Shown here: positions 1 through 27,290 of the stretch, in pieces
Position numbering within the stretch: the first letter of the stretch is position 1
Layout: each line of letters starts with the position of its first letter
Virus record (IMG/VR): IMGVR_UViG_3300002835_000131
Coordinates: 1 to 64,000 of that record
Source of the DNA: an uncultured virus (IMG/VR IMGVR_UViG_3300002835_000131)
Lineage: Duplodnaviria > Heunggongvirae > Uroviricota > Caudoviricetes
Strand: one strand, 5' to 3'
DNA: 64,000 nucleotides
Notes under the pieces: generated by a model
What the model saw: the letters and a program-made list of their open reading frames with translations, nothing else
Told to the model about the DNA's origin: nothing
Databases searched by the model: none
Program-made: the position numbers and the translations under genes

Positions 1-137
1 TAGGTGTAGAATTAGGTGAAAAAGATTTTGAAGAGTATAATGATGAGGATTTTGAATTAGATGAAGATGGAGATCCTGATATAGATATGTTAAAAGAATC
101 AAGTAAAATAGTAATAATTAATGGGGGTATGTTTTAA
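1..137 (+). CDS. partial acidic early protein (3' end only)
   Basis: Frame 3 is open to TAA at 135-137 (GVELGEKDFEEYNDEDFELDEDGDPDIDMLKESSKIVIINGGMF); followed by a hairpin and promoter. Confidence 0.7.
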   Translation, partial: GVELGEKDFEEYNDEDFELDEDGDPDIDMLKESSKIVIINGGMF

Positions 138-219
138 CCCCCATTTGGCTTTTTAAATAATTTTTATTATATTTAAGTAATAAGAAAAAATAAGTTAAAC
201 AATTTAAAAAGAAAAAGAT

Positions 220-441
220 ATGAAAAATTATGAAATTTTAAGAAGTGATGTAAAGGAAATTATTGGTGATAAATTTTCTTGGTATAATGATAAGTATAGA
301 AGTGGTAAAAGAAGATTAAAATTTAGTTGGTTAAATGATGAGGATAGAGAGAAAGTGTATAATATTTTAAAAGATAAAGGTTATGATGTAAGAAATTATT
401 TTAATAATTTTGATAGATTAGTTGTTTATTTAAATGATTAA
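220..441 (+). CDS. hypothetical early protein
   Basis: ORF with own promoter and AAAGAT-ATG leader. Confidence 0.8.
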   Translation: MKNYEILRSDVKEIIGDKFSWYNDKYRSGKRRLKFSWLNDEDREKVYNILKDKGYDVRNYFNNFDRLVVYLND

Positions 442-529
442 AAAGGTTTGGAAAGTTAAATAATTTTTATTATATTTAAAATGTTAAGAAAATAAATAAG
501 TTAAACAATTTAAAAAAAAAGAAAAAGAT

Positions 530-925
530 ATGAAAAGATTAAGTAAATTTGAAGTTGAAAGTTTAGTAAATGTAGTAGTGAGTAAATTGGAAAAAATTGA
601 AAGTGAAAAATTTGAAAAAGAGTGTATTGAATTTGTTGATGAGTGGAATAAAGAGTTAGAGGAATTGAATAATGAAAGGAAAATTTGGGAAGATAAGTTT
701 AAGGAAAAAAAAGAAAAGATTAGGAAGGAGATAAAAGTAAAAGGATGGAAAGGTGTAGATGTTAATGAATGGTTTTGTGATAATAAGTTTGTTAGATTTA
801 ATGAAAGTAATTTTGTAGAATGGAGTGTAAGGGTTAAAATTATGGATGAAATTGTTATTAATTCTTTAAAAGATAATAATGTTGATAGTTTAATAGATAA
901 TTTAATAAATAAGTTTAAAAGTTAA
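530..925 (+). CDS. hypothetical early protein (charged, coiled-coil-like)
   Basis: ORF with own promoter and AAAGAT-ATG leader. Confidence 0.8.
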   Translation: MKRLSKFEVESLVNVVVSKLEKIESEKFEKECIEFVDEWNKELEELNNERKIWEDKFKEKKEKIRKEIKVKGWKGVDVNEWFCDNKFVRFNESNFVEWSVRVKIMDEIVINSLKDNNVDSLIDNLINKFKS

Positions 926-932
926 TTATTAA

Positions 933-960
933 GGGAGGGTTAAATATGTTTGACCCTCCC
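933..960 (+). terminator. stem-loop overlapping the -33 promoter element
   Basis: GGGAGGGTTAAA-tatg-TTTGACCCTCCC; 26 bp of 927-952 repeated at 1545-1570. Confidence 0.6.
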
Positions 961-1019
961 ATTAATTTTTATTATATTTAATTATAAAGAAAATAAGTTA
1001 AACATTTAAAAAAAAAGAT

Positions 1020-1265
1020 ATGAAAAAATTTACACATGAGAATGTATTGGAGATTTTATTTAATAATGGAATTGATGATGAGTATTTTGAGAAGATGGAT
1101 GGTTTAGATAATAAGGAAATTGAGTATGGGAGTGAGGAGTGGTTGGATGTGTTAAGTGATATTGTGGGTAAGGATGTTTATAATGAGGATTTAAGTAAGG
1201 AGGATGATATTTTAATAAGTGAGTTTATAAGGATGTTGGGGGAAATGGAAATTAATTTAGTATAA
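1020..1265 (+). CDS. hypothetical acidic early protein
   Basis: ORF with promoter and leader; very D/E-rich. Confidence 0.8.
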   Translation: MKKFTHENVLEILFNNGIDDEYFEKMDGLDNKEIEYGSEEWLDVLSDIVGKDVYNEDLSKEDDILISEFIRMLGEMEINLV

Positions 1266-1318
1266 ATGTTTGGCCTTCGGGCCATTCTTTATTATATTTA
1301 ATTATAAAGAAAAAAGAT

Positions 1319-1540
1319 ATGAAAAAAGAAATGAAGTTTAAGATCGGTGATATGGTTAAACCTACAAATAAGGGTTGGGGTAAAAGATTTATTGGTAAAA
1401 TTTGTGATTGTTGGATGAATAAACCTGAAAATATCCAAATTAGAAATGGTGAAATTGTTTATATAGTAACACATCATAATTACAGAGGTAATATGGTAAT
1501 GACTTATCAGATTAAAGAATCTAATTTAGTTGCCCTATAA
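1319..1540 (+). CDS. hypothetical early protein (SH3/KOW-like start FKIGDMV)
   Basis: ORF with promoter and leader. Confidence 0.75.
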   Translation: MKKEMKFKIGDMVKPTNKGWGKRFIGKICDCWMNKPENIQIRNGEIVYIVTHHNYRGNMVMTYQIKESNLVAL

Positions 1541-1639
1541 CTTGTATTAAGGGAGGGTTAAATATGTTTGGCTCTCTTATTATTCTTTATTATATTTAGT
1601 TATTAAGAAAATAAGTTAAACACTTTAAAAACAAAAGAT

Positions 1640-1843
1640 ATGGCAAATATGAGTTATTGTAGGTTCAGAAATACTTACTTAGATTTAATTGATTGTTCTA
1701 ATAATTTAAATGACAAAGATATGTCATTTGATGAAAAAATGGCTAAGAAGAATTTATTAGAATTGTGTAAGGAAATGATTGAAGATTATGAGTTTAATAA
1801 TTTAGGTGAGTTAGAAGATGATTTTGATGAGGTTTGGAGTTAA
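1640..1843 (+). CDS. hypothetical phage protein
   Basis: ORF MANMSYCRFRNTYLDLIDC with promoter and leader. Confidence 0.8.
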   Translation: MANMSYCRFRNTYLDLIDCSNNLNDKDMSFDEKMAKKNLLELCKEMIEDYEFNNLGELEDDFDEVWS

Positions 1844-1900
1844 ATAAGTTTGGCCTTCGGGCCAATCTTTATTATATTTAAATATAAAGAAAAAAAAGAT

Positions 1901-2224
1901 ATGACAAATCAATCGTATAAAATTATCTCTAAAGAAAATCATAAAAATATTTGTGATGCTTATTGTTTAGAATTAAATAATGAGACTTATAAAGGATTTA
2001 ATATTCAAACTAAAGGATATTTACTTTATAATGAAGGAAAAACATTTGATTTAAGTAATAATTTAATTAATAAGTATCTAAATTTTGATTTATGGTCAGA
2101 AATAAGAGATATTAATGGAGTATTCTTAAAAAGAATTGCAGGTTCTAATCAAGGACATTTAATTAATAGTTCTATAAATAGAGTAAAAAAATATATAGAT
2201 AATAATAGTCATAGGTTAAAATAA
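1901..2224 (+). CDS. hypothetical early protein
   Basis: Start moved to the ATG after AAAGAT; the track start (1850) lies inside the promoter. Confidence 0.75.
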   Translation: MTNQSYKIISKENHKNICDAYCLELNNETYKGFNIQTKGYLLYNEGKTFDLSNNLINKYLNFDLWSEIRDINGVFLKRIAGSNQGHLINSSINRVKKYIDNNSHRLK

Positions 2225-2275
2225 GTTTGGCCTCGCCATGAATTGATGTTATATTTAGATATAAAGAAAAAAGAT

Positions 2276-2416
2276 ATGACAGTAGAAGAATTAATTGAAA
2301 AATTATCTAAAATTGAAGATAAAACAAAAGAAGTAATGCTTATAGGTGATACTAAAGAGTGGATAAATCATAGGATTAAAGAAAAAGAGAATTGTATAGT
2401 TTTATATAATAATTAA
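2276..2416 (+). CDS. small hypothetical protein (46 aa, MTVEELIEKL...)
   Basis: Not in track; AAAGAT-ATG directly after the promoter at 2226. Confidence 0.7.
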   Translation: MTVEELIEKLSKIEDKTKEVMLIGDTKEWINHRIKEKENCIVLYNN

Positions 2417-2423
2417 ATAAGAT

Positions 2424-2597
2424 ATGAATATAAGAAAACAATTTATGGATGATTTAATATTAAATCAAGACCATGAAATTTTAGAAACTGTTATTAACTC
2501 TATATGTGAAGAGTTGAGTAAAGAAGGATTTGATAAAGATGATATTAATAAATTTGTATTGGTTAAGGTTAAAGAATATTTGGCCTCGGTAAAATAA
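2424..2597 (+). CDS. small hypothetical protein (57 aa)
   Basis: Not in track; AAGAT-ATG leader, open to TAA at 2595-2597. Confidence 0.65.
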   Translation: MNIRKQFMDDLILNQDHEILETVINSICEELSKEGFDKDDINKFVLVKVKEYLASVK

Positions 2598-2650
2598 GAT
2601 GTTATATTTAGGTATAAAGAAAATAAGTTAAACATTTAAAAAAAAAAGAT

Positions 2651-2836
2651 ATGGGAAGTACAGTATTTGCAGTTTCAGATTTTGAAGGATCATTTGAAGA
2701 ATTAGTTCATATTGATAATGTCAATATAATTGAGTATATTGAAGAAGGATATGATGGTGGTTTACCAAGTGTTAAAGTAATGGACCATGGTAAAGAAGAT
2801 ACTTGGTTTTATATTGATTTAGTAGAAATTGATTAA
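2651..2836 (+). CDS. hypothetical acidic protein
   Basis: ORF with promoter and leader. Confidence 0.75.
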   Translation: MGSTVFAVSDFEGSFEELVHIDNVNIIEYIEEGYDGGLPSVKVMDHGKEDTWFYIDLVEID

Positions 2837-2888
2837 TTTGTTTGGAATCCCAATTAATTGATGTTATATTTAGTTAAATAAGAAAAAT

Positions 2889-3104
2889 ATGATAAAAAGA
2901 GACGAAAAAGTATTAAATATAATCAATCTATGTAAAGATATCGATATTGATGGCGAAACAACTGAATATATTTTAGAAAAGATTGGAATGACTAACCAAA
3001 TGTTACGCCAATTGGTGATGAATAATCCACAATCAGATACAATCGATTTATTAAATGAAAAAATCGAATTGGATAATCAACGACTTAGTAATTATCAAGG
3101 TTAA
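2889..3104 (+). CDS. hypothetical protein
   Basis: ORF with promoter. Confidence 0.75.
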   Translation: MIKRDEKVLNIINLCKDIDIDGETTEYILEKIGMTNQMLRQLVMNNPQSDTIDLLNEKIELDNQRLSNYQG

Positions 3105-3162
3105 ATTTGTTTGGCCTCGCTAATAATTGATGTTATATTTAGGTATAAGAAAAAATAAAGAT

Positions 3163-3411
3163 ATGATACACGAAACAGAATTAAAATCAGGTTACTTCAT
3201 TTATGGTAACAAAGGTAATGTGTGGGAAAACACATCACACATTTACAAATCAGGTCAAGGTAACTTATGTGGTACACCAGCGCTTGCAACTAACCATGCC
3301 AAGTTTAATGGAATTAAAGTGGCGGGTTGTGTAAAGTGTAGTGAAGAGTATAGTGAGTTAATGGAACATCAATATTGGATTGATAAAAAAGAAGATTTGA
3401 TGGAAGGTTAA
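3163..3411 (+). CDS. hypothetical protein, possible Zn-binding (H..LCG..CVKC)
   Basis: Start moved to AAAGAT-ATG at 3163. Confidence 0.75.
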   Translation: MIHETELKSGYFIYGNKGNVWENTSHIYKSGQGNLCGTPALATNHAKFNGIKVAGCVKCSEEYSELMEHQYWIDKKEDLMEG

Positions 3412-3474
3412 ACAGGTTTGGCCCTCCGGGGTAAGGATGTTATATTTAAGTATTAAGAAATTAAAGAAAAAGAT

Positions 3475-4359
3475 ATGAACCAAACACAAACTAAAAGACG
3501 CGGTAGACCGTCTAAAAAGAAGGTAGCACAAAATGTCACATACACGCCATCGTTAATTGATTTCTCAGCTATAACTAAGTTAAACAACTTAAATGTCGAT
3601 CCTAAAATGATGGAGACAATGAAGTCAGGTCTAGCATTAGATCACTTTGTAAGTTATGAGGGTGGAGTACCGAGCGCTTCAAATATGATGATTATAGGTG
3701 ATCCGGGTGTAGGTAAAACAACATTGTTATTAGATCTATTAGCCGCGGTACAGAATAAAAGCCGTAAATGCTTATTTATATCAGGTGAAATGGGCCGTAA
3801 GCAAATGTTTAAATACACACAACGGTTTCCACAGTTTGGTATTGTAGACACTTTATTTATGAGTGACTATATGAATCACAACACTAAGGATGTAATTGAA
3901 CAGGCGCTTAACATTGGATATGATTTAGTTTTAATTGATTCTATCGCTGAAATTATTGATGGGGTTAGAGATGATAACAATTGGGATAGAAAAATTGCCG
4001 AGTCATGGTTAGTAGATGTTTGTGTTAACAATAATAAAGGTGATAACAAAGGAAATAAGTACACATCGTTTCTACTGATTCAACAAGTTACTAAAGCGGG
4101 TGTGTTTGTGGGTTCGAATAAGCTGAAACACTTAACAGACGCAATGTTAGAAATGAGACGTGAGTCGGATAGAAATGGTGGTGGTACATATTTAACATTT
4201 ACTAAGAATAGAAACGGTGAGGCTGGAATGAGAATGAGTTTTCAATTAACAGGCACACAAATATATTACGGCACAATTGAAATTGATTCTGATGGATCAG
4301 ATGAGGAGTTGGAATTAGAAATAACCAACCCGGAGTATCAAAACATTATTTTTTCTTAA
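3475..4359 (+). CDS. RadA/Sms-like RecA-superfamily ATPase lacking the Lon-like C-terminal domain
   Basis: Walker A GDPGVGKT, FISGEM, Walker B LIDSI, GSNKLKHLTDA, KNRNG. Confidence 0.8.
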   Translation: MNQTQTKRRGRPSKKKVAQNVTYTPSLIDFSAITKLNNLNVDPKMMETMKSGLALDHFVSYEGGVPSASNMMIIGDPGVGKTTLLLDLLAAVQNKSRKCLFISGEMGRKQMFKYTQRFPQFGIVDTLFMSDYMNHNTKDVIEQALNIGYDLVLIDSIAEIIDGVRDDNNWDRKIAESWLVDVCVNNNKGDNKGNKYTSFLLIQQVTKAGVFVGSNKLKHLTDAMLEMRRESDRNGGGTYLTFTKNRNGEAGMRMSFQLTGTQIYYGTIEIDSDGSDEELELEITNPEYQNIIFS

Positions 4360-4364
4360 TATCT

Positions 4365-4411
4365 GAGGTAATTGGTCCTGGCGCGTTTCATATCCGCCCA
4401 GGGCTAACCTC
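4365..4411 (+). terminator. intergenic stem-loop
   Basis: TTGGTCCTGG (4372-81) pairs with CCAGGGCTAA (4398-4407) including G-U pairs; GAGG/CCTC closing stem. Confidence 0.45.
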
Positions 4412-4464
4412 TTGTTTGGCCTCCCGATCAATTGATGTTATATTTAATTATAAAGAAAAAAGAT

Positions 4465-4698
4465 ATGACAAACACAAACACTATCATCAAACAATTTTTA
4501 AAATTAAATTTTCCTAAACAGTTTATTTATTTTAATAATCCAAAATCAATTAAAATTCAATTACCAAACACAATTTCTGAATCATTAATTAATTTTTTAC
4601 AATCTCAAAATATTCAATTTAATTCAACACAACCTGAATTAATTCAATATCAATTAACATTTATTAAAAACATGACTCAAATCATAATTAATAAATAA
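4465..4698 (+). CDS. hypothetical early protein (G-depleted gene)
   Basis: Start moved to AAAGAT-ATG at 4465; promoter at 4415. Confidence 0.7.
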   Translation: MTNTNTIIKQFLKLNFPKQFIYFNNPKSIKIQLPNTISESLINFLQSQNIQFNSTQPELIQYQLTFIKNMTQIIINK

Positions 4699-4756
4699 AA
4701 AATTTGGCTTCCGGGTCAATTGATGTTATATTTAGATATAATAAGAAAATAAAGAT

Positions 4757-5191
4757 ATGAAAAAAGAAATTATTATTGCTCAAAAAAACAAAGATTTAAT
4801 CATCACAAACTATAGTGGTGATAGTATGTGTGGTGAAGGTAAGTACAGAGTTATAACAAAATGTAAAGCTGGGTTTATGGTTACAAGTGTTAAACAGGCT
4901 AAAAGTGCGATTGATGTGTTTCGTAGTTATAAAATTAAACATGTACATTCGATTGCTTTTATAAAAGAAAATGATAAGTTAGGTGGGTATGATTTTATGG
5001 TTTACGCTCGTGTAGGTAAAAAAGTATGGATTGAGGAAGATTTATTACGTGAGTTAGAGATAGGTGATATTAATCAGAGTCTATATAATACAGCTTTATA
5101 TTCTCAAGAACAATACAATAAAGTAAATGCTAAGTCATGGGCAAGTAAAGCATATGTGATGAATGGTTCGTTTGAATTTAGTGAGGCCTGA
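4757..5191 (+). CDS. hypothetical protein
   Basis: ORF with promoter and leader. Confidence 0.8.
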   Translation: MKKEIIIAQKNKDLIITNYSGDSMCGEGKYRVITKCKAGFMVTSVKQAKSAIDVFRSYKIKHVHSIAFIKENDKLGGYDFMVYARVGKKVWIEEDLLRELEIGDINQSLYNTALYSQEQYNKVNAKSWASKAYVMNGSFEFSEA

Positions 5192-5242
5192 TTTGGCCTC
5201 GCTAATAATTGATGTTATATTTAGGTATAATAAGAAACAGAT

Positions 5243-5377
5243 ATGAAAATATTAAACATTTTAGATATACCAGGTAACGAGTTAGTAGAAGTGTTATGAA
5301 TCGATGATAATGAAATCGAGTTAATACCGATACAAGAGTTTATTAGTAAGTATGGAGTAGACAAATTAAATAAATAA
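5243..5377 (+). pseudogene. small gene interrupted by an in-frame TGA
   Basis: MKILNILDIPGNELVEVL*IDDNEIELIPIQEFISKYGVDKLNK; TGA at 5297-5299; directly behind the promoter at 5192. Confidence 0.5.
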
Positions 5378-5380
5378 GAT

Positions 5381-5575
5381 ATGAATATAATAAAATTAGA
5401 AACAAGAACAACCACAACGTTTGAGGTGTATTATGAAAGGTATAATTACACAGTGGTTAAAGAACAGTTAAGTAAAAACACATTTAAGTATATTGTAATA
5501 GAAAGTTTTGATCAACCACTTGATGATGACTTTAAATCAAGGTTAGTGATGGAACTAGAAAGTGTAATTGGTTAA
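5381..5575 (+). CDS. hypothetical protein
   Basis: ORF with AAGAT-ATG leader. Confidence 0.7.
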   Translation: MNIIKLETRTTTTFEVYYERYNYTVVKEQLSKNTFKYIVIESFDQPLDDDFKSRLVMELESVIG

Positions 5576-5577
5576 CC

Positions 5578-5733
5578 ATGAAAAAAACAATCACACTATT
5601 AGCATTACTAATTGGATTATTAATGTTAACACAATCATGTTCATCACGTCGTTATTATAAACGTCATAAACCTAAACAAGCATGTAAGGGCGGTGACTGG
5701 GGAGGTAATTTAATGGAAAAACGTATATGGTAA
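5578..5733 (+). CDS. small basic lipoprotein
   Basis: Not in track; MKKTITLLALLIGLLMLTQS-C signal peptide and lipobox. Confidence 0.65.
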   Translation: MKKTITLLALLIGLLMLTQSCSSRRYYKRHKPKQACKGGDWGGNLMEKRIW

Positions 5734-5789
5734 TTTGTTTGGCTCACCAATAATAGTTTATTATATTTAGATATAAAGAAAAATAAGAT

Positions 5790-5951
5790 ATGGCAACGGA
5801 TAAAGAAAAATTAGACATTATTAAAAACACATTAACAGCAGTATTAGAATCTGATGTAATAGTAGATAATAATAATTCAGATGCATTTAAATTTGGTTAC
5901 TTGAAAGGTACCATTAATACAATAATTGAGTTTATAAACGAACAACAGTAA
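5790..5951 (+). CDS. small hypothetical protein (53 aa)
   Basis: Not in track; follows the promoter at 5738 with AAGAT-ATG leader. Confidence 0.65.
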   Translation: MATDKEKLDIIKNTLTAVLESDVIVDNNNSDAFKFGYLKGTINTIIEFINEQQ

Positions 5952-6037
5952 ACAACATGGTAGCATTTTTATTAATAGTAGCAATACTATATTTAGCCTC
6001 AATTAATAATAAAATTAAACACTAAAACCGCAATAAC

Positions 6038-6148
6038 ATGTCAGACATCGGAATCGACTTTAGCATCACGTTAATACTTACTATGGTAGTATTGGTTGTT
6101 GGAACAGAATTAATTGACCGTTATAAACAATATAAACGAGTTAAATAG
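6038..6148 (+). CDS. small single-TM peptide
   Basis: MSDIGIDFSITLILTMVVLVVGTELIDRYKQYKRVK; another hydrophobic 22-aa ORF at 5957-6025. Confidence 0.4.
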   Translation: MSDIGIDFSITLILTMVVLVVGTELIDRYKQYKRVK

Positions 6149-6657
6149 TATTTTATATCATATCTTATGGGTGGGTCGATAATCTCGATCCCCCTTTTCT
6201 TGTTTTGTGTGGGTTACATCCCCTATCTGTTTGCGGTATATATACGGTATATGTACGGAGGTAGTGCGGTGGAAATGCGTGCGTTGTTATCCATCGATGT
6301 GTACGTGGTATGGAAGAAAGAAGGTGATGTAAAAACAGCAAGTAAACGTATACTGCGCGCGGAGCGTATATATTGATATACAACCACTACCTACCATACC
6401 ACTAACACGCATTAACACCGCTATATTCCGCCCATATCCCGCCTATAAACGACGAACAATTGTAAAATGCATAATGCGCAATTCCATATAGCTCCTTTGG
6501 TATAACCGGCTAAAGGCCGGAAATAACTTAGAAGTATAATTTTTCACATCGATGCAAATATATACCTATATACCTTAAGTTTGGCTCACCAGGATAAGGA
6601 TGTTATATTTAAGATGTTAAAAAAGATATAAGTTAAACAAGTTAAAAAATAAAGGTT

Positions 6658-7458
6658 ATGTTAGACATTAAAAACATGGATTTCATCGATAAGTCGGAAA
6701 TCAAAACAAGAGCAAATTCAATTTTCACAACTACCGGTTCACCTAGTACTTCAGATAAGTACGCTCACATCTCAACCGAAAAAATTATTGACGATATGGA
6801 GTTATTAGGATGGGGTGTGGTTGATGCAAAACAAGTTAAGGCGCGTAAGAGTGTAGGATATCAAAAACACTTAGTTGTGTTTAGAAATCCAGAAATTGTA
6901 ATTGATGGAGCAGACGGTGACACAGTTTTTCCTCAAATATTACTTACCAATTCACACGACGGTAAAAATGCATTTACATTCACAGCCGGTTTATTTAGAA
7001 TGATTTGTGAAAATGGTTTAGTGGTTTGTAATCAAGAATTCGAGAACCTAAAAATTAGACACTACGGATATGATTTTGAGGAACTAGAAAAAACCATTAA
7101 TACAATGGTAGAAAAGTTACCGTTAACTGTTGAATCAATGAACCGCTTTAAAACCACGGTTTTGAATTCAAACCAAATGCTTGATTTTGCTAAACGCGCA
7201 TTGAATTCCAGATTTACTGATAGTGAATTAGAGCATATCACCATCGATTTAAATGACTTATTAACTCCATCACGTGAGGAAGATAAGGGTAATGACATGT
7301 GGTCAGTGTTTAATACAGTTCAGGAAAAGTTAACACATGGGTTATTTAATTACGCTTACGGTTCTAAAAATCGTAAGGCACGTAAAATTAAGAACTTCAA
7401 TAAGGACATGGAGTTAAACAATAAGTTATATCAATTAGCAAACGAATTCGTTAATTAA
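6658..7458 (+). CDS. DUF932/DUF945-family protein
   Basis: LLTNSHDGKNAFTFTAGLFRMICENGLV signature and WSVFNTVQE. Confidence 0.8.
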   Translation: MLDIKNMDFIDKSEIKTRANSIFTTTGSPSTSDKYAHISTEKIIDDMELLGWGVVDAKQVKARKSVGYQKHLVVFRNPEIVIDGADGDTVFPQILLTNSHDGKNAFTFTAGLFRMICENGLVVCNQEFENLKIRHYGYDFEELEKTINTMVEKLPLTVESMNRFKTTVLNSNQMLDFAKRALNSRFTDSELEHITIDLNDLLTPSREEDKGNDMWSVFNTVQEKLTHGLFNYAYGSKNRKARKIKNFNKDMELNNKLYQLANEFVN

Positions 7459-7520
7459 TGGCGAGTTCGTATATATGTATATTAGTAGATAGGTATACAC
7501 AAAATTAGCGCGCGAGAACT

Positions 7521-8012
7521 ATGGGAAGTTATAAAACCAATAAACAAGTATTAAAAAAATTAACTGTTGAAGAAGCACAAGCCTTTATTCCGGTTAGTAT
7601 GGAAAACTCTGATGAGTTAGAAAATGCTTATTTTTATACTATGGTTCCTTTAGGTAATGGTTGGGATGAAATAAATTATTATACTAATCGAAATACTCAA
7701 ACTTGGAGACAAGGTAAACATAATAGTTGGATTTATATTTTATCTAATAAAACAATACCTGGTCTTTATAAAATTGGTCACACAACAAAACATCCTGATG
7801 AGCGGGCTAAAGAAATTTCACGATCAACTGGTGTACCAATTCCATTTGAAGTTGAATGGGCGTTTGACTGTTTTGATTCTGATAGGTTAGAAGTAGAAAT
7901 TCACAGAGCATTAGACTCGTTTAGATATTCATCAAATAAAGAATTTTTTGAAATATCTTTAAATGAAGCAAAAGAAACTATAAGGAAACTTGGCTCTGCA
8001 TATAGGAGTTAG
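7521..8012 (+). CDS. T5orf172/GIY-YIG-superfamily protein
   Basis: WIYILSN..GLYKIGHT..RAKE..TGVP.PF..E.EIH..EFF. Confidence 0.8.
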   Translation: MGSYKTNKQVLKKLTVEEAQAFIPVSMENSDELENAYFYTMVPLGNGWDEINYYTNRNTQTWRQGKHNSWIYILSNKTIPGLYKIGHTTKHPDERAKEISRSTGVPIPFEVEWAFDCFDSDRLEVEIHRALDSFRYSSNKEFFEISLNEAKETIRKLGSAYRS

Positions 8013-8064
8013 TATATTTATAATACGATAAATTAAACAAATAAAAACCAATAAAAAAAAGAAG

Positions 8065-8217
8065 ATGAAAAATCTAATTGCAATCGCGGCTTTAGCTGCA
8101 ATCGTTTTGACTTCATGTCAATTTAACTCAACAAAAGAAACTACAACTACAGATTCAACTGCTGTTGATTCAACAGTAGTAGTAGATTCAGTATCTGTTG
8201 ATACAGTAACTAAGTAA
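8065..8217 (+). CDS. small lipoprotein with D-(S/T)-x repeats
   Basis: Not in track; MKNLIAIAALAAIVLTS-C lipobox, then DST, DST, DSV, DTV. Confidence 0.75.
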   Translation: MKNLIAIAALAAIVLTSCQFNSTKETTTTDSTAVDSTVVVDSVSVDTVTK

Positions 8218-8225
8218 TTAGTTAC

Positions 8226-8298
<73 letters not shown>

Positions 8299-8409
8299 CC
8301 CGGATTCATATAAATCGAGCGCAAAACCAATTGCTCCTTAGGTAGAAATATATGAATAAACAACCCGTCACGGTATGTTCATAGAACAGGAGTGAACTAA
8401 GGAGAAAAT

Positions 8410-8529
8410 AGTTAGGTGGCGGAATAGTAGACGCAACAGGTAAGTTAACGGAATTATTAATTCCATAAGGCCATTAATTCCGAGATGTAAGAGAAATACA
8501 TCATACAGGTTCAAATCCTGTCCTAACTA
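8410..8529 (+). ncRNA. tRNA-like RNA with aberrant, expanded anticodon region
   Basis: Acceptor AGTTAGG/CCTAACT, Leu-like D arm, T arm ACAGG-TTCAAAT-CCTGT, no canonical anticodon arm. Confidence 0.65.
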
Positions 8530-8534
8530 CATAT

Positions 8535-8606
8535 TGCGGAATAGAGCAGTGGTAGCTCGCTAGGCTCATAACCTAGAGGTCATAGGTTCGAGTCCTATTT
8601 CCGCTA
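8535..8606 (+). tRNA. tRNA-Met(CAT), initiator-like
   Basis: Anticodon arm CTAGG-CTCATAA-CCTAG; unpaired 1:72 position. Confidence 0.88.
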
Positions 8607-8658
8607 CTAAATGTACTTGTAAGCATACCGTAAGATCTGCTTACAGGTCTTTCTTGGA

Positions 8659-8743
8659 GGAAGGTTGGCAGAGTGGTCGATTGCGGCAGTCTTGAAAACT
8701 GTTGTACTGTAAGGTACCGTAGGTTCGAATCCTACATCTTCCG
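8659..8743 (+). tRNA. tRNA-Ser(TGA)
   Basis: Anticodon loop CTTGAAA, long variable arm, discriminator G. Confidence 0.9.
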
Positions 8744-8748
8744 CTTCT

Positions 8749-8819
8749 TACCCTTTCGTCTAATGGCAGGACAATTGGTTTTGGTCCAATTAATCGAGGT
8801 TCGAGTCCTTGAGGGGTAA
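8749..8819 (+). tRNA. tRNA-Gln(TTG)
   Basis: ATTGG-TTTTGGT-CCAAT anticodon arm; GGTTCGAG T-loop. Confidence 0.9.
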
Positions 8820-8867
8820 CTGTTCTTTGATATATTGGTAGTATTAAAATCATAAGGAGACAAACAA

Positions 8868-9182
8868 ATGGAAACATTATCATTTATTTTAGGAATGTCC
8901 TCAGTAGTGGTTATCGCAATTGCGGTAGTTGCTGTTATAGGATTTTTTAAGGTTAGAAGTGTTGAAAAACAATTTAACGAATACAGACAAAACTTTACTG
9001 TTGGGTTTGATATGAGAATAAAAGATATTCACGATAGTATACATCAGGTAAATGATCAATTACATCGTAGAATTGATAACACAGAAAGAGAAGTTTTTTC
9101 CCAATTAGACTCTCGATTAGATAAATTGGAAACTAAATTAACAGACACAATTAAAAATGGTTGTGAACCTGTTAGAAAATAA
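8868..9182 (+). CDS. membrane-anchored coiled-coil protein
   Basis: N-terminal TM helix followed by heptad-like region. Confidence 0.75.
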   Translation: METLSFILGMSSVVVIAIAVVAVIGFFKVRSVEKQFNEYRQNFTVGFDMRIKDIHDSIHQVNDQLHRRIDNTEREVFSQLDSRLDKLETKLTDTIKNGCEPVRK

Positions 9183-9227
9183 ATTAACAAGTAAATAAAT
9201 TAAACCCACTACCAATATATTAAGAAC

Positions 9228-9302
9228 GCTCGGTTCGTCTAGGGGTTAGGACAGGAGATTTTCATTCTTCAAACAGGGGTTCGATTCCCCTACCGAGTAC
9301 CA
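9228..9302 (+). tRNA. tRNA-Glu(TTC) with encoded CCA
   Basis: Acceptor GCTCGGT/ACCGAGT, loop TTTTCAT, ends ACCA. Confidence 0.88.
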
Positions 9303-9365
9303 TATTTATCATAAAATAGGTTGTCGTCAATTAGTTATATTTATCTTTAAATAATTAAAACGATA

Positions 9366-9614
9366 ATGAAAAATATTATAACCTGGTTAGGTGGTCTTTT
9401 CAAAGATGAAAAAGGCACACCGTCTTCTAAGAGATTCGTAGGAATCTTATGCGCAATAACACTATGTATTACTATGTACTCTAATTCATTTACAGAGGCT
9501 CATTTTGCTCCTTCTAAAGAATTAGTTGATGCTGTTGCGTTACTTGCATTCGGATGTTTAGGTCTTGCATCTGTAGATAAAATTTGGGGTAAGAAAAAAG
9601 AAGGAGAAGAATAA
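9366..9614 (+). CDS. putative holin (2 TM)
   Basis: Two hydrophobic helices, charged C-terminus, in a cluster with the endolysin. Confidence 0.55.
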   Translation: MKNIITWLGGLFKDEKGTPSSKRFVGILCAITLCITMYSNSFTEAHFAPSKELVDAVALLAFGCLGLASVDKIWGKKKEGEE

Positions 9615-9901
9615 TGGCAGCACCTAAAAAAACAGAAATTAAAGTTCCTTCAGCAATGCCTGTATCTTTTGAGCAGTTTAGTAAAGATCCTGTAAAAGGT
9701 TTATTATTTATTGTATTAGTAGCTATTGGGTATTTATATGTAGATGGTAAGATGAATTATACTCAGCAAATAGATAAATATAATACAGAAGTAATTATGT
9801 TAAATCAAAAAGTTGATAAGTTAACAGAACATATTAGAAAAAGCGATTCAACTTTAGGATATATGATTTCAAAAGTTGAAATGTTACAAATAATAAAATG
9901 A
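9614..9901 (+). CDS. membrane protein (TM + coiled coil), lysis cluster
   Basis: One TM segment; stop/start overlap with the upstream gene. Confidence 0.6.
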   Translation: MAAPKKTEIKVPSAMPVSFEQFSKDPVKGLLFIVLVAIGYLYVDGKMNYTQQIDKYNTEVIMLNQKVDKLTEHIRKSDSTLGYMISKVEMLQIIK

Positions 9902-10224
9902 GAATAGCTATTATATTTATATTTTTAATGACCGCTGTTTTGGCTCAATCACCAAAAGTAGTAGATCCTAAAGAAAAAGAGTTAGATGCTCTTATGTTAA
10001 AATCTCAAAACAGGTTAAAGAAGATTAATGTGCTTACAAAGCAAATCGATAAGATGTCTTCGAGCAAGGTAAATGGGATGAAGGAAAGTATAGAAACATT
10101 ACAAGAAGAAAAAACACAATTAAAAAATGAACTACAAGAAACTAAGGCTATTGTTGAGTATAACTCTCCTGATAAGTCTATCCCATTCAGCCTTGAGCCA
10201 ATCGTATCCGACTCAACGAATTGA
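9898..10224 (+). CDS. spanin-like coiled-coil protein
   Basis: N-terminal hydrophobic signal, coiled coil, 3' end overlaps next ORF. Confidence 0.5.
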   Translation: MRIAIIFIFLMTAVLAQSPKVVDPKEKELDALMLKSQNRLKKINVLTKQIDKMSSSKVNGMKESIETLQEEKTQLKNELQETKAIVEYNSPDKSIPFSLEPIVSDSTN

Positions 10225-13618: not shown

Positions 13619-13960
13619 ATGAGTAATTTAGAATCAGTTGTTTTTGGAAACAAGAAATTCTCTGATATCTTAAGTGAGATATACGATAATCAAAAGAAAA
13701 AAGAAAAACAAATATCAACATTAATTGGTGAATTAAAGCCATTAATCAATGATATTGGTGATGCTACATTAATTGTACCTTTAATTAAAGAATACTTAGA
13801 AATAAGTGTTAAAAATGATGAACAATTAATTAAAATGGCGACTATTATTCAACGTGCTTTATCTAATTCAGCTGAAGCAGGTAATGGATTTGATTTATCA
13901 GATGAAGAAAAAACACAACTATTAGCTGAAATAGATAAAATAAGTAAAGATGCCAATTGA
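13619..13960 (+). CDS. hypothetical protein
   Basis: ORF after late motif; helical. Confidence 0.75.
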   Translation: MSNLESVVFGNKKFSDILSEIYDNQKKKEKQISTLIGELKPLINDIGDATLIVPLIKEYLEISVKNDEQLIKMATIIQRALSNSAEAGNGFDLSDEEKTQLLAEIDKISKDAN

Positions 13961-15218
13961 TGTTACATATGGTTACAGTTCAGTAAGTAAAGGATTTAAT
14001 ACAGGTAATAAAAATTATGCTGTTGATACCGCTACTTCTTTAGGTAATCTAATAACAGCTGTTCGTGTTAAAGATATAGTATTAGATAAAACACATCCGC
14101 AATTTGTAAATGTAGGTGAATGGAATGGTTTAGGTACTATATTTTTTGATGTAGTTAAAGATCCTAATATTTCAAATAAAAATACTTGGTCTACTGCTCG
14201 TCCTATATCATCTAATATTAAAATATATCCATTAATTAATGAGATAGTATATTTAATATCATTTCCTGATACTGGTATAGGAAGTAATCCTACATCAGGT
14301 CAATTATATTATATTAGTACTATAGGTATATGGAATACACCTCATCAAAATGGTTATCCTACTATTGATACCATACCACCTCCATCACAACAAAAAACAA
14401 TTGATCAAATTGAGTTAGGAAGTTTAAGAACTGTAACTAATCAATCTACTGAACTTAATTTAGGTGATACATTTAAAGAACGTGGCAATATTCATCCTTT
14501 ATTACCTTTTGAAGGTGATGTAATAGAAGAAGGAAGATGGGGTAATAGTATTCGTTTTAGTTCAACTATTAAAACTAAATCATTACCATCAATAGGTTTA
14601 AATGATTGGTCTCAAGGACCAAGTACATCTGGAGATCCTATCACTATTATTAGAAACGGCCAATCAGTAAAAGCAAATAATGAAGGTTGGGTACCTATAA
14701 CAGAAGATATTAATAATGATTTAAGTTCTATTTATTTAACTAGTACACAAACTATACCATTAAATGCATCTAGTATTAGTTATTTTAGTTATCCTGATAA
14801 CCCACCTCAAGATATAAATAAATTTAATGGCCCTCAATTAATATATAATTCAGGACGTATAATATTAAATACAAACCAAGATCATTTACTTTTAAGTTCT
14901 ATTAAATCAGTAAATTTAAACGCTGTAGAATCAGTCAATATTGACACACCTACAACTATAATTCAGTCAAATAAAGTATTATTAGGTTCTAAAAACGCAA
15001 CAGAACCTGTTTTATTAGGTGATAGTACAATCGCTACTTTAGCATCAATACTTGATAATATGGTAGGATTTTTAAATTCTTTAGAAAATGTAGTATCTAC
15101 AGCTCCAGGAACACCATTAATTACATTATCCTTACCTGCTAATTTATTATCAAGTAAACTAGATGAGATTAAAGGTAATCTTGAAAAATTAAAATCTAAC
15201 ACTGTTAAAACTGTATAA
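13950..15218 (+). CDS. baseplate hub/spike protein (gp5-like)
   Basis: P.INEIV, EGDVIEEGRWGNSIRF, beta-rich C-terminus with EPVLLGD; upstream of gp25/gp6-like genes. Confidence 0.6.
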   Translation: MPIDVTYGYSSVSKGFNTGNKNYAVDTATSLGNLITAVRVKDIVLDKTHPQFVNVGEWNGLGTIFFDVVKDPNISNKNTWSTARPISSNIKIYPLINEIVYLISFPDTGIGSNPTSGQLYYISTIGIWNTPHQNGYPTIDTIPPPSQQKTIDQIELGSLRTVTNQSTELNLGDTFKERGNIHPLLPFEGDVIEEGRWGNSIRFSSTIKTKSLPSIGLNDWSQGPSTSGDPITIIRNGQSVKANNEGWVPITEDINNDLSSIYLTSTQTIPLNASSISYFSYPDNPPQDINKFNGPQLIYNSGRIILNTNQDHLLLSSIKSVNLNAVESVNIDTPTTIIQSNKVLLGSKNATEPVLLGDSTIATLASILDNMVGFLNSLENVVSTAPGTPLITLSLPANLLSSKLDEIKGNLEKLKSNTVKTV

Positions 15219-16174
15219 TGGCAACTATCAACCCAGAAGAATTAGAACAGGCTAGATTACAACAAGCATTTGATGAACAAGTAGCATTAGCTCAATCTAA
15301 TACTACCACAGTAGATGCTACTGAAATTGAAAATGCAACTCCATCTGATTTAAAAGCGATGGGTATTTCTAAATTACCTTTATTATTATTAGTAATAGGT
15401 AATCAAATAAAAAATATTATTGAACCTGCGTTAATCAATTTAATTAAAACTTATATACAAAAATATTTAGCAGCTGAAGCCTGTGCTGATCAAGCTACTA
15501 TAGATAAAATAATACAACAACGAAATTTAATAGTTAATCAATTAAATAAAATTGTTAAAACTTTAACTATTATCACAATATCATTAGCAGTAGCTATTAC
15601 ATTTTTAGATCTTTTAAAATTAGCTATTAAAGGTATTGATTTAGCTAAAATTGCAGCGTATTTTGCAGCTGCTGCGTTTCCTGTATTAATACCTACTTTA
15701 CCTAGTACATTACAACAATTAGATTTAGCTAAAATAAAACTACAAACAGACGAAGAAGGTAATGCTAAAATAGCTAAATATAAATCAATAATTGGAGGAG
15801 CAGCATTAGTATCATCTATTATTGGTGGATTTATATTAATAGCTATAGGATTATTAAATTCTATTGATATTTTCTTACAAAAATGTGCTCCTAATCAAGC
15901 AAATGAATTAGTTCCTATATCTAAAGAAACACAAGATATAGCTAAAGTACAAGCTCAAGCAACAACAACACAAAATCAAACAACATATAGAGATTTTATT
16001 ATTGAAATTGAATTAGTACCATACACTTCTACTACAACTCGTAGACGTGCTATTGGTAAAAATCAAGATGGTATTATATTAATTCAAACTGAATTATCAT
16101 TTACTACTAATGATCAAACATTAATTGATGAATTAAAACTAATTATTGATAGAGATAATTTAAAAGCCTATTAA
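15218..16174 (+). CDS. hypothetical helical protein with hydrophobic segments
   Basis: ORF within the baseplate operon. Confidence 0.7.
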   Translation: MATINPEELEQARLQQAFDEQVALAQSNTTTVDATEIENATPSDLKAMGISKLPLLLLVIGNQIKNIIEPALINLIKTYIQKYLAAEACADQATIDKIIQQRNLIVNQLNKIVKTLTIITISLAVAITFLDLLKLAIKGIDLAKIAAYFAAAAFPVLIPTLPSTLQQLDLAKIKLQTDEEGNAKIAKYKSIIGGAALVSSIIGGFILIAIGLLNSIDIFLQKCAPNQANELVPISKETQDIAKVQAQATTTQNQTTYRDFIIEIELVPYTSTTTRRRAIGKNQDGIILIQTELSFTTNDQTLIDELKLIIDRDNLKAY

Positions 16175-16192
16175 CTTAATATTTATAACACG

Positions 16193-16546
16193 ATGAAATC
16201 AGAAGAATTTAAAAAAATCATTAAAGAAGCCGTTCGTGAAGTATTCGTTGAAGAAATGAAAGAAATACTTTTAGAAGCGGTTAAAGCACCTAAAGCCTCA
16301 GCAGGTCAAGGTGGTTATGGAACTGTTACAGAATCAGTTAAACCAATTAGTTCTAAACCATTAGATCCAAATGCTAAAAAAGCAGTTATGGCTAATATTT
16401 TAGGTGATATGGCATCTGGTAGAACAATGACAACAGAAGCTCTTACTGCTAATACATTTATACCTAGAGGAGGAGATGCAATTAATGGATCTTTACCTGA
16501 TGGTAATGTTGGATTAGATCAAATTATGGGTTTATTAAATAAATAA
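16193..16546 (+). CDS. hypothetical protein
   Basis: N-terminus MKSEEFKKIIKEAVRE. Confidence 0.7.
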   Translation: MKSEEFKKIIKEAVREVFVEEMKEILLEAVKAPKASAGQGGYGTVTESVKPISSKPLDPNAKKAVMANILGDMASGRTMTTEALTANTFIPRGGDAINGSLPDGNVGLDQIMGLLNK

Positions 16547-16548
16547 TA

Positions 16549-16956
16549 ATGGCATTTGGTGCACAAAAAATATTTCCTATTGATACTAAAACTGGTACGG
16601 CTATTGGTGTTAGTTTAGATTTTAGTAATCCTGGAGTATTTCAGTCTACTTATTTAACTAAAGATGCTATTAAGAATAATTTAATAAATTTTTTCTTAAC
16701 CAACCAACCAGAACGTTATTTAAATCCATTATTTGGTGGTAATTTAAGAAATTTTATATTTGAACAAATAACAGCTAATAATACTGATTTTTTAAAACAA
16801 GATATTCAAACCCAAATAGGTTTATATTTTCCTAATGTTATAGTAGCTAGATTAGATGTTATAGAATATCCAGATATAAACCAAGTAGTAGTAACATTAA
16901 AATATACAATAGCAGACACTAATATAAGTGATCAATTAGATATAGCATTCAATTAA
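16549..16956 (+). CDS. baseplate wedge protein (gp25-like)
   Basis: IKNNLINFFLT..ERYLNPLFG.NL..FE. Confidence 0.85.
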   Translation: MAFGAQKIFPIDTKTGTAIGVSLDFSNPGVFQSTYLTKDAIKNNLINFFLTNQPERYLNPLFGGNLRNFIFEQITANNTDFLKQDIQTQIGLYFPNVIVARLDVIEYPDINQVVVTLKYTIADTNISDQLDIAFN

Positions 16957-18812
16957 TGGCAACAATTAAAGATATAAAGTACCTAAATAAAGATTTTACA
17001 GAGTTAAGATCTAGTTTAGTAAACTACGTTAAAACGTATTTTCCAACTACGTATAACGATTTTACTCCAGCATCACCAGGTATGATGTTTATGGAAATGG
17101 CAGCTTATGTAGGTGATGTTTTGTCATTCTATTTAGATAATCAATTCCAAGAAACATTTTTACAATATGCTCGTCAAACAAATAATTTATATGAATTAGC
17201 TTATATGTTTGGTTATAAACCAAATGTAACAGGTGTAGCATTAGCTGATATAAATTTTTATCAACAAGTACCTGCTATATCTTCAGGTTCATCTTATATA
17301 CCTGATTTTAATTATGCTTTATATATTGAACCTAATTCTAGAGTAACATCTAATCTTAATTCAAACATTTCATTTTTAGTTGGAGATCCAGTTGATTTTT
17401 CATTTTCAAGTTCAAGTGATCCAACTGAAGTAACTATATATCAAATAACAGGAACAACTCCTCAATCATTTTTATTAAAGAAAACTCGTAAATCTATTTC
17501 TGCTACTCTTAAGTCTAAAACTTATACATTTGGAGAACCAGTTCAATTTGCAACTGTTGAATTAAATGATGAAAATATTATTGGTATATTAGATTGTGTT
17601 GATACTGATAGTAATCCATGGTATGAAGTTGATTATTTAGCTCAAGATACAATTTATAAATCAATAAGAAATACTAACACTAACGATCCTTATTTATCAC
17701 AATATCAAGGAGATACACCTTATTTATTACAATTAGAACAAGTTCAAAGAAGATTTGTTACTCGTTTTATTGATTCAGGCTCATTACAAATACAATTTGG
17801 TGCTGGAACCGCAACAGATAAAGATGAAGAAATTATTCCTAATCCAGACAATGTTGGTTTAGGTTTACCATTTGAAAAAGATAGATTAACAGTAGCTTAC
17901 TCACCTAATAACTTTACTTTTACTCGTACCTATGGTATAGCTCCGTCTACTACTCAATTAACCTTTAGTTACTTAACTGGAGGAGGAGTTTCAGCGAATG
18001 TGCCGTCTAATGACTTAACTCAGTTTAATGGCAGTGTTCAATTCTTAAATAGTAATCTAAATTCTACTACAGCTAATACAATATTTAATTCATTAGCTGT
18101 ATCAAATCCAGAAGCAGCAAGTGGAGGAGGTAGTGGAGATACAGAAGAAGAAATTAGACAAAATTCATCTGCTAACTTTGCTTCACAACAACGTAATGTT
18201 ACTCAAGATGATTATTTAGTTAGAACATTAGCTATGCCGGCTAAATATGGTACAGTAGCAAAAGCATATATTGAACCTACTAAAGCACAAACTATATCAG
18301 CTGGTGAATCTAATTCAATATTAGATTTATATGTTTTAAGTAATAATGCTCAAGGTCAATTAACCACAGGCTCATTAGCTTTAAAACAAAATGTAATTAC
18401 TTATCTATCACAATATAGAATGGTTAATGATTCTATTAATATTAAAGATGGATTTATTATTAATATTGGAGTAAATTTTGAAATTATAATTTTACCTAAC
18501 TATAATAATAATCAAGTATTAACAGCTTGTATATTAGCATTACAAGATTATTTCACAATTGATAAATGGCAAATTAATCAACCTATCTTATTACGTAATT
18601 TATATATACTTTTAGATAGAATTGAAGGAGTTCAAACAGTAAAAACTGTGGATATAGTAAATAAAGTAGGTACTAATTTAGGATATTCACCTTATGCTTA
18701 CGATATTACAGGAGCAACAGCAAATAATGTTATTTATCCTAGTTTAGATCCATCTATATTTGAAGTAAAATACTTAAACACAGACATTCAAGGTAAAGTA
18801 GTACCTTTATAA
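16956..18812 (+). CDS. baseplate wedge protein (gp6/J-like)
   Basis: DFTELRSSL..YNDF..EMAAYVGDVLSFYLD; GG.DTEEEIR..QRNVTQDDY. Confidence 0.88.
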   Translation: MATIKDIKYLNKDFTELRSSLVNYVKTYFPTTYNDFTPASPGMMFMEMAAYVGDVLSFYLDNQFQETFLQYARQTNNLYELAYMFGYKPNVTGVALADINFYQQVPAISSGSSYIPDFNYALYIEPNSRVTSNLNSNISFLVGDPVDFSFSSSSDPTEVTIYQITGTTPQSFLLKKTRKSISATLKSKTYTFGEPVQFATVELNDENIIGILDCVDTDSNPWYEVDYLAQDTIYKSIRNTNTNDPYLSQYQGDTPYLLQLEQVQRRFVTRFIDSGSLQIQFGAGTATDKDEEIIPNPDNVGLGLPFEKDRLTVAYSPNNFTFTRTYGIAPSTTQLTFSYLTGGGVSANVPSNDLTQFNGSVQFLNSNLNSTTANTIFNSLAVSNPEAASGGGSGDTEEEIRQNSSANFASQQRNVTQDDYLVRTLAMPAKYGTVAKAYIEPTKAQTISAGESNSILDLYVLSNNAQGQLTTGSLALKQNVITYLSQYRMVNDSINIKDGFIINIGVNFEIIILPNYNNNQVLTACILALQDYFTIDKWQINQPILLRNLYILLDRIEGVQTVKTVDIVNKVGTNLGYSPYAYDITGATANNVIYPSLDPSIFEVKYLNTDIQGKVVPL

Positions 18813-18822
18813 TAATTAAATA

Positions 18823-24145: not shown

Positions 24146-24148
24146 TAT

Positions 24149-26581: not shown

Positions 26582-26620
26582 AATAAAATTTGTATATATT
26601 TATAACAAAAATAATAACCA

Positions 26621-27280: not shown

Positions 27281-27290
27281 TATATAACAT

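Follow-up and report, generated by a model that had tools for sequence, protein, structure and literature searches.

The first 64,000 nucleotides (nt) of the 74,176-nt virus record IMGVR_UViG_3300002835_000131 of IMG/VR, a Caudoviricetes sequence of the linear class with an estimated completeness of 46%, open with small early genes from which cytosine has almost disappeared; this 64-kb stretch is referred to below as the window. Comparisons with relatives show that selection holds a handful of small early genes free of C in their coding parts, and that one further family is kept near-free of G. Selection against one base, acting at the level of the transcript or of transcription, is the probable class of explanation. 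Tentatively ranked first within this class is the proposal that C-free messages evade RNA-cutting enzymes that need C, and we infer that the benefit is gained at the RNA level. The three genes on which the finding was first made are the following.

220 to 441, plus strand: ORF1, a C-free gene encoding a basic protein of 73 amino acids (aa), pI 9.2
530 to 925, plus strand: ORF2, a C-free gene encoding a protein of 131 aa of no known family
1020 to 1265, plus strand: ORF3, a C-free gene encoding an acidic protein of 81 aa, pI 4.1

For these three open reading frames (ORFs), the cytosine counts of the original prediction are exact, at 1 in 222 nt, 1 in 396 nt and 2 in 246 nt, and G is as abundant as it had reported, with 44, 92 and 71 residues (20–29%). 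Together the three hold 4 C in 864 nt where about 109 would be expected; the probability of 4 or fewer is 3e-44 at the 12.6% C of other early genes and is still 6e-18 if the 5.9% of the C-poor neighbours is taken instead. Positions 1–1265 as a whole contain 22 C and 269 G, against a window background of 12.8% C and 16.3% G. A check of the translation confirmed that the 131-aa product of ORF2 lacks Ala, Pro, Thr, His and Gln. These five residues, all of whose codons contain C, make up 0–2% of the three proteins compared with 18–22% of other phage proteins, and NNT codons stand to NNC codons as 116 to 0 in the three genes. Along the C-poor genes the depletion is even, with no 5' bias, and the leftover C show no special dinucleotide context. 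Among 1,485 control ORFs of at least 50 aa, taken from both strands of five other AT-rich phage genomes, the lowest C content was 5.6%. The island is not an assembly artefact, because it recurs in independent contigs of IMG/VR and JGI that come from a large number of lake metagenomes. At least 88% of the sampled words of window positions 1–7000 were present in 19 DNA runs from 19 lake or freshwater studies of 2016–2024, and five RNA runs held just 5–10% of them each.

Homologues bear out the proposal that the constraint overrides protein composition, as C avoidance at the amino-acid level is kept in diverged relatives whose ORF2 proteins are 48–60% identical. Pairs of ORF2 homologues differ at 60–114 bases, and C is involved in only 1–4 of these differences; the corresponding fractions are 0 of 11, 0 of 3 and 0 of 10 for homologues of ORF1 (93–99% identical) and 0 of 22 for ORF3. 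In contrast, C is involved in 26–32 of the 46–58 differences in a RecA-like gene 2 kb downstream. Of 60 cluster representatives of the ORF2 family (47–100% identity), drawn from a collection of 5.8 billion proteins, 44 are devoid of Ala, Pro, Thr, His and Gln, which total 39 of 7,731 residues in the family. All 59 representatives of the ORF3 family have at most three such residues, usually one conserved Thr-His pair, and both C of ORF3 itself sit in this pair at residues 5–6. ORF2 is fast-evolving, with 8 of 91 differences keeping the codon's amino acid, and it has paralogues in relatives; this change at the amino-acid level and these paralogues, combined with a sporadic, lineage-specific spread, are an arms-race pattern. 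The C-free proteins appear to be real, in that conservation extends to their reading frames and AlphaFold, given 38 relatives, models ORF2 with confidence (mean predicted local distance difference test score 88.5) as a long helix, a beta hairpin and two helices. Foldseek found nothing in the PDB that matched this model at E <= 0.001. Neither Pfam nor PHROG gave a family for ORF0 to ORF3, and among the first 14 early proteins scanned (the small ORFs of at most 131 aa up to the G-poor gene described below, plus the RecA-like gene of 294 aa), 12 have no PHROG family and 13 no Pfam family.

The trait belongs to individual genes. In the related contig L177, consecutive promoter-and-gene cassettes within 2 kb contain 2 C in 234 nt, 32 in 372, 1 in 204, 8 in 150, 2 in 381 and 27 in 279, and neighbours with near-identical promoters span 0.5% to 9.7% C. 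The complete genome of Flavobacterium phage immuto, the nearest cultured relative of the window phage, has a single C-poor ORF among 324, namely gp143 at 68330–68686 of NC_055915.1, with 5 C in 357 nt (1.4%), which forms the third cassette of an analogous array and is flanked by genes with 8.9% and 14.7% C under the same promoter type. ORF1, ORF2, ORF3 and gp143 show no mutual BLASTP relation and represent at least four unrelated C-free families; additional C-free ORFs occur in contigs L173 and L177, and where gene order differs between relatives the C content moves with the gene. A homologue of ORF3 in the more distant phage L032 (53% identity) has 11.3% C, and therefore the ORF3 protein family does not impose the composition. 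The mosaic seen in L177 and immuto thus identifies the trait as one of single-gene transcription units, rather than of a stretch of DNA, of one end of the genome or of a gradient in mutation, and since each cassette yields one message, a gene-specific benefit points to the transcript or its synthesis.

The same observations weigh on a purely mutational account, in which strand-specific cytosine deamination on the non-template strand of heavily transcribed DNA has emptied these genes of C with no selection at all. The sign of the skew fits, C being lost and G kept, and many of the differences between ORF3 and its C-containing homologue are of the A-to-V or T-to-I/V type. Against this, adjacent cassettes of one promoter type differ in C content over the range given above for L177 and from 1.4% to 14.7% in immuto, composition follows the gene when the order changes, and the G-poor family has the opposite sign. 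Moreover, among the few residues of the ORF2 family that require C, Gln is the most frequent (18 of 39), although C-to-T change in its codons yields stop codons, and an equilibrium at 0.3% C would need an implausibly large rate asymmetry. Because of the mosaic, the G-poor gene, the C-normal homologue and the frequency of Gln, mutation bias is very hard to credit, and extreme strand-specific deamination, an alternative raised in the original prediction, is disfavoured. A milder tendency of coding strands is captured by Szybalski's rule, or purine loading, and by transcription-linked GC skew. The window resembles such cases in its purine-rich coding strand (68% in ORF2) and in G far above C, but departs from them in a GC skew of about +0.98, in an amino-acid composition that is overridden, in its confinement to single genes and in the nearby gene of opposite sign.

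This opposite-sign gene lies further along the early region.

4465 to 4698, plus strand: G-poor gene encoding a basic protein of 77 aa, with 5 G in 234 nt and about 15% C (P = 3e-16)

Two homologues, 77% and 63% identical, contain 8 G in 237 nt and 6 G in 225 nt, respectively, and have ordinary flanking genes, and the identical protein is also encoded on a 155,611-nt near-complete contig of this phage type. Across 30 representatives of the family, residues with G in every codon amount to 6.9%, compared with 35–39% in ordinary phage proteins. A 57-aa hydrophobic ORF with only 7 G in 174 nt, at 13208–13381 of contig L176, is possibly another G-poor gene, or its composition may simply be that of a membrane protein.

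The C-poor zone extends over about 3.2 kb, with a core of 1.1 kb, and its remaining features within and around the three genes are these.

3 to 137, plus strand: 3' portion of an early gene for an acidic 80-aa protein, forming the zone's upstream shoulder
120 to 145, plus strand: terminator-like hairpin GGGGG...CCCCC, whose 3' arm holds five of the 22 C
145 to 219, plus strand: predicted host-type promoter TTGGCT-17-TATATT, continuing TATATTTAAG, with a long A-rich leader that contains ATAAGTTAAACA and no Shine-Dalgarno sequence
165 to 6609, plus strand: 16 promoter/stem-loop cassettes with TTGG(C/A)N-17-TATATT repeats and a small ORF each
442 to 529, plus strand: intergenic promoter and leader of ORF2, with no hairpin and a single C (506)
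933 to 978, plus strand: terminator-like hairpin GGGAGGG...CCCTCCC, overlapping the next promoter TTGACC-17-TATATT in the manner of promoter-early stem-loop (PeSL) cassettes
1271 to 1298, plus strand: GGCCTTCGGGCC hairpin, overlapping the promoter of the following cassette
1319 to 2836, plus strand: six more early cassettes with 3.5–8.1% C and normal G, the downstream shoulder

As had been described, C returns gradually through the six genes of the downstream shoulder, reaching at least 8.7% from 2889. Eleven of the 22 C of positions 1–1265 lie in the 3' arms of the two terminator-like hairpins (138–142; 954–956 and 958–960), one in the -35-like TTGGCT (149), three in the repeated leader motif GTTAAACA (200, 506 and 1003), three in the truncated upstream ORF (75, 76 and 100) and only four inside the three ORFs (278, 864, 1033 and 1035). 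Each early gene has a predicted promoter and most also have their own hairpin, although ORF1 and ORF2, with no hairpin between them, may be co-transcribed. The typical cassette consists of a G-run/C-run hairpin, often over or before the -35 box, an A-rich leader that is short or long, AAGATATG, and the small ORF; leaders end in AAAAAGATATG and have no GGAGG-like element. Terminator-like hairpins number 10 in positions 1–7000 compared with 1.4 (standard deviation 1.2) in shuffled sequences, an enrichment of about seven-fold, and several overlap a -35 box. The order and content of the array are shuffled among contigs L009, L010, L011, L176 and L177.

Leaders of the long variant, ATAAGTTAAACA(A/T)TTTAAAAA, occur at 174–219, 477–529, 979–1019, 1597–1639, 2609–2650 and 6610–6657 and hold a second -10-like TAAGTT; this variant may be a tandem promoter or a regulatory site. 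It precedes 13 of 19 C-free genes and 17 of 68 others (Fisher p = 8e-4, the rows being related sequences), and because the rows are related and the motif also precedes C-rich genes, it only hints at a regulatory class. Leaders of C-free genes contain 0–3 C, usually 1, with AAATA and AAACCC among the variants. The C-less AAATA form was found in 3 of the 16 leaders of C-free genes examined, and the C is kept in all C-containing long-leader genes examined. In gp143 of immuto, a T replaces the C of GTATCAATAATT that the other seven immuto cassettes examined have kept.

Upstream of the array lies a G+C-rich region of about 1 kb (L009 1970–3040, roughly 0.4–1.5 kb before window position 1) with at least 13 GGGGAT(G/T) repeats and two small genes of DNA-binding type, which encode a 53-aa protein with two GRP (AT-hook-like) motifs and a 68-aa helix-turn-helix-like protein; composition is normal further upstream. 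The immuto array is likewise preceded by a repeat-rich region (ACCCGT repeats, L023 2300–2900), and the repeat region before the array is a candidate origin or master regulatory region. A second G+C-rich stretch, with up to 47 C in 200 nt, lies at 6150–6600 of the window between the early cassettes and a DUF932 gene; it contains a terminator-like hairpin (6173–6191), no convincing ORF and no Rfam match at gathering score. Short G+C-rich ORF-like stretches at corresponding places of L010 (6388–6582) and L011 (2440–2550 and 5286–5420), which translate as ...HTGSSPVLTT..., may be conserved RNA elements rather than genes.

The closest architectural parallel is with the PeSL cassettes of the hyperplastic regions of T4-type phages (Arbiol et al. 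2010, PMC2839356). As far as the accessible text of that study allows the comparison, both have repeated host-type promoters joined to G-run/C-run stem-loops placed between or over the promoter boxes, both stand upstream of small early ORFan genes that are shuffled between relatives, and both occur in phages with T4-like structural genes. The window cassettes differ in their A-rich leaders, which end in AAGATATG with no Shine-Dalgarno sequence at the 3' end, and in a host that is probably a Flavobacterium relative, and the accessible text of PMC2839356 makes no mention of nucleotide-lacking genes.

The original prediction had read the island as first-injected DNA that contains no palindromes with G or C and thus goes unseen by most type II restriction enzymes until anti-defence proteins are made. 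Its observation stands, but this interpretation is not supported, and one of the alternatives it listed, a nuclease-based one, now ranks first. The palindrome logic is itself correct, in that a strand lacking C or G has no G/C-containing palindrome. Indeed, the C-free ORFs hold just one such site, CATG at 1034–1037 in ORF3, and their early position would suit first-entering DNA. The island, however, is internal. Contig L009 is identical to the window in their overlap and reaches 3,480 nt further upstream, with at least 3.1 kb of normal-composition genes on the same strand before the island; the C-poor zone starts some 380 nt upstream of the window's first position, and therefore the window opens inside it. 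The truncated 80-aa gene is complete in L009 (3375–3617), with 11 C in 243 nt (4.5%). In L176, about 11.8 kb separate the C-free gene from the nearer contig end and about 33 kb from the far one, and the T4-like large terminase presumably indicates headful packaging without a fixed genome end. Sites are also present both inside the zone and genome-wide: two of the few C left in 1–1265 form a GATC and a CATG, GGCC occurs six times in 1–3000 in the cassette hairpins, AT-only palindromes are plentiful in the island (TTTAAA nine times), and the rest of the contig is rich in G/C palindromes (GATC 145, GTAC 253 and AGCT 302, with observed-to-expected ratios of 0.6–1.2). C-free and normal cassettes are interleaved in L177 and immuto, leaving no contiguous palindrome-free segment, and DNA-level protection of single genes of 200–400 nt makes little sense because a cut in the neighbouring cassette would be equally lethal. 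Known first-entering phage DNA, such as the leading end of T7 with ocr and the first-step-transfer DNA of T5, shares with the island its early genes, its counter-defence logic and its want of G/C palindromes, but the island is internal, is a gene-by-gene mosaic and has sites within and elsewhere. Finally, every G of immuto is replaced by fdPreQ1 and its DNA resists enzymes with G in their site, as stated in the part of the source available (PMC10516641); immuto DNA is thus already protected by full G replacement, yet the phage has a C-free gene. A restriction-invisible leading segment is accordingly a highly improbable explanation.

The first-ranked proposal places the benefit in the message. 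With no C in the single-stranded coding part, a message would remain uncut by endoribonucleases whose recognition needs C, candidates being the mRNA interferases of toxin-antitoxin or abortive-infection systems and the collateral RNases of RNA-targeting CRISPR. Production of the encoded proteins, probably counter-defence or takeover factors, could then continue as the messages of the host and the ordinary ones of the phage were being cut. Purging every C would confer blanket immunity against many enzymes with different C-containing motifs, and the G-poor gene would be the same solution to G-containing motifs. RNA cleavage is ranked first because C is tolerated only where a cut spares coding, because the depletion is uniform and context-free, and because the purge is near-complete. 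The surviving C lie where, from their predicted positions, cutting would leave coding capacity intact, in the base-paired arms of hairpins behind the stop codon and in 5' leaders; the evenness of the depletion fits avoidance of C itself; and a near-complete purge is as expected when each site is an independent risk. A precedent exists in messages that lack ACA and escape MazF, or that are poor in GCU and escape MqsR. There too the absence of a recognition element spares the message gene by gene, but the elements are motifs of 3–7 nt, whereas here a whole nucleotide has been dropped at the cost of five amino acids, and the genes concerned are phage early genes.

Several points weigh against this proposal. 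No bacterial RNase is known to us for which a lone C is enough, and the argument relies on many motif-specific enzymes. One ORF2 subfamily carries three C (AAACCC) in a presumably single-stranded leader, which would be harmless only if a cut leader leaves a translatable message or if transcription starts downstream; given the second -10-like TAAGTT in the long leader, a start downstream of CCC is possible. Exclusion of G is less strict than that of C, with 5–8 G per gene and 11–15% of differences involving G. Lastly, every sequence feature fits hazards on CTP use or on template G equally well, since C in the coding strand, C in the RNA, use of CTP and G in the template coincide, and for this reason message, nucleoside triphosphate (NTP) and template hazards cannot be separated by sequence.

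A base-specific hazard of transcription is the nearest competitor, and a rather unlikely one. Under this explanation the genes need no CTP and have a template without G, and would thereby evade ddhCTP, a shortage of CTP, or damage to or hypermodification of template guanine, as exemplified by fdPreQ1 in immuto, DNA modification directed at guanine, and attack by glycosylases; for the G-poor gene the counterpart would be ddhGTP or template C. The evidence of gene-specific selection supports it just as it does RNase evasion, and transcription independent of CTP or of ddhCTP, another suggestion of the original prediction, may still apply. G-less and C-less cassettes are an artificial tool of in-vitro transcription assays and likewise illustrate that transcription is possible without one NTP, but the units in the window are natural, protein-coding and conserved. 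In immuto, gp143 is the sole gene with a template strand almost free of the modified base; its leader is without the C of the other seven cassettes, and AAATA leaders precede 3 of 16 C-free genes. On the other side, the leaders of C-free genes usually keep one C and in one subfamily have CCC, which would be as harmful there as in the coding part. The promoters, moreover, are host-type, and host RNA polymerase is reportedly insensitive to ddh-nucleotides. Among the points in favour, prokaryotic viperins make the chain terminators ddhCTP, ddhGTP and ddhUTP according to the available text of one report (10.1101/2023.09.13.557418).

A link with 7-deazaguanine, in which a C-free gene would have an unmodified template, is attractive for immuto but was rejected as a general rule, as five other DpdA3 genomes are without a C-poor ORF. 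Phage CP220, for which the accessible portion of the same source as for immuto gives full dADG replacement (PMC10516641), has no ORF with C of 2% or less among 246 (lowest 6.4%), and four complete genomes of the DpdA3 clade have none among 1,239 (lowest 5.6%). No QueC, TGT or homologue of the immuto Que/DpdA proteins was found in the 74-kb contig, itself 46% complete, or in the fragments of relatives, and among 80 DpdA-bearing viral loci none overlaps the 74-kb contig or L009 and none has its promoter motif.

Two further explanations appeal to other properties of the RNA. In the first, dropping C or G removes G-C pairs and leaves an unfolded message that is translated fast without a Shine-Dalgarno sequence, and a single pressure would thus cover both the C-free and the G-poor genes, with C retained just at places that need a hairpin. 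Minimum free energies per nt range from -0.07 to -0.09 in the C-free genes and reach -0.065 in the G-poor gene, compared with -0.166 (standard deviation 0.023, n = 16) for late-gene windows, the leaders are without Shine-Dalgarno sequences, and C is concentrated in hairpins. This folding signal, however, is one of composition only, with z scores against dinucleotide shuffles of +0.5 to +0.95 and, for the G-poor gene, -1.1. The C-poor genes show no 5' bias of depletion, the potential for A/U pairing is undiminished, and a collective property such as structure requires neither that the last C be removed nor that five amino acids be banned. Selection for unfolded messages is thus unlikely. The second explanation holds that C-free, G-rich early messages escape termination by Rho before ribosomes engage. 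Rho, a silencer of foreign DNA, depends on C and is loaded onto naked RNA rich in C and poor in G, and such an escape would account for the wider zone of 3.2 kb with about 4–6% C and about 20% G. A C content near 5% would suffice for it, though, leaving 0–0.8% C unexplained, and the conserved G-poor, C-rich gene, with a C/G ratio of about 5–7, would be an ideal Rho loading site. Protection from Rho is therefore improbable as the cause.

As for the phage that carries these genes, the large ORFs of the window all lie on the plus strand, and matches to PHROG families include the large terminase, portal, prohead protease, baseplate wedge, primase, exonuclease and endolysin. The large terminase shares 59% identity with its counterpart in the 160-kb Flavobacterium phage vB_FspM_immuto and is more distantly similar to T4-type terminases. 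From this nearest cultured relative, from leaders without Shine-Dalgarno sequences and from promoter motifs, which we take also to fit the Bacteroidetes -33/-7 consensus, we infer a Flavobacterium-like host. A megablast search of window positions 1–8000 against the phage collection gave no match. Viral contigs extend the sequence upstream by only 3.5–4.3 kb; a metagenome relative supplies 10 kb further upstream, with ordinary genes and no modification genes.

Downstream of the early cassettes is a cluster of transfer RNAs.

8226 to 9302: tRNA cluster of five genes, Thr(UGU), Met, Ser(UGA), Gln(UUG) and Glu(UUC)

A scan of window positions 1–10000 with Rfam yielded these five tRNAs and nothing else. 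Three of the five read C-containing codons, and the residues concerned (Thr, Ser-TCN and Gln) are avoided in the C-free genes. G+C at third codon positions is about 6–14% in the late structural genes (13950–29333) and about 21–31% in ordinary early genes (3475–7458), and early and late genes therefore use different codon dialects. Other features include a T5orf172-domain protein in the early region (7521–8009), a SegE-like GIY-YIG homing endonuclease between the structural and replication genes (29333–29788), and a 1,127-aa protein (32534–35914) that has no PHROG family and gives weak matches to nucleotidyltransferase, cytidylyltransferase-like and ADP-ribosyltransferase domains.

No published description of natural phage genes that lack a nucleotide was found in the full-text collection searched, from which subscription journals are largely absent. 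The loss of one letter, and with it of five of the twenty amino acids, means that selection at the nucleotide level has been placed above constraint at the protein level, a rare situation and one that can be detected by computer. If its cause is a base- or motif-specific attack by the host, the trait would mark from sequence the key early ORFans of the first minutes of infection and would point to an unassigned defence activity in Flavobacteriia. It is a fair possibility, short of an even chance, that three-letter genes represent a general viral strategy by which the first counter-defence genes are made immune to base-specific weapons, whether these act on the NTP pool, the template or the message; were this true, such genes would flag counter-defence functions, and indirectly base-specific defences, that are as yet unknown. 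The cultured relative immuto, grown with Flavobacterium sp. LMO8, makes the idea directly testable through its 357-nt gp143, and the genes may offer a rule from nature for designing messages that have to withstand nucleases.

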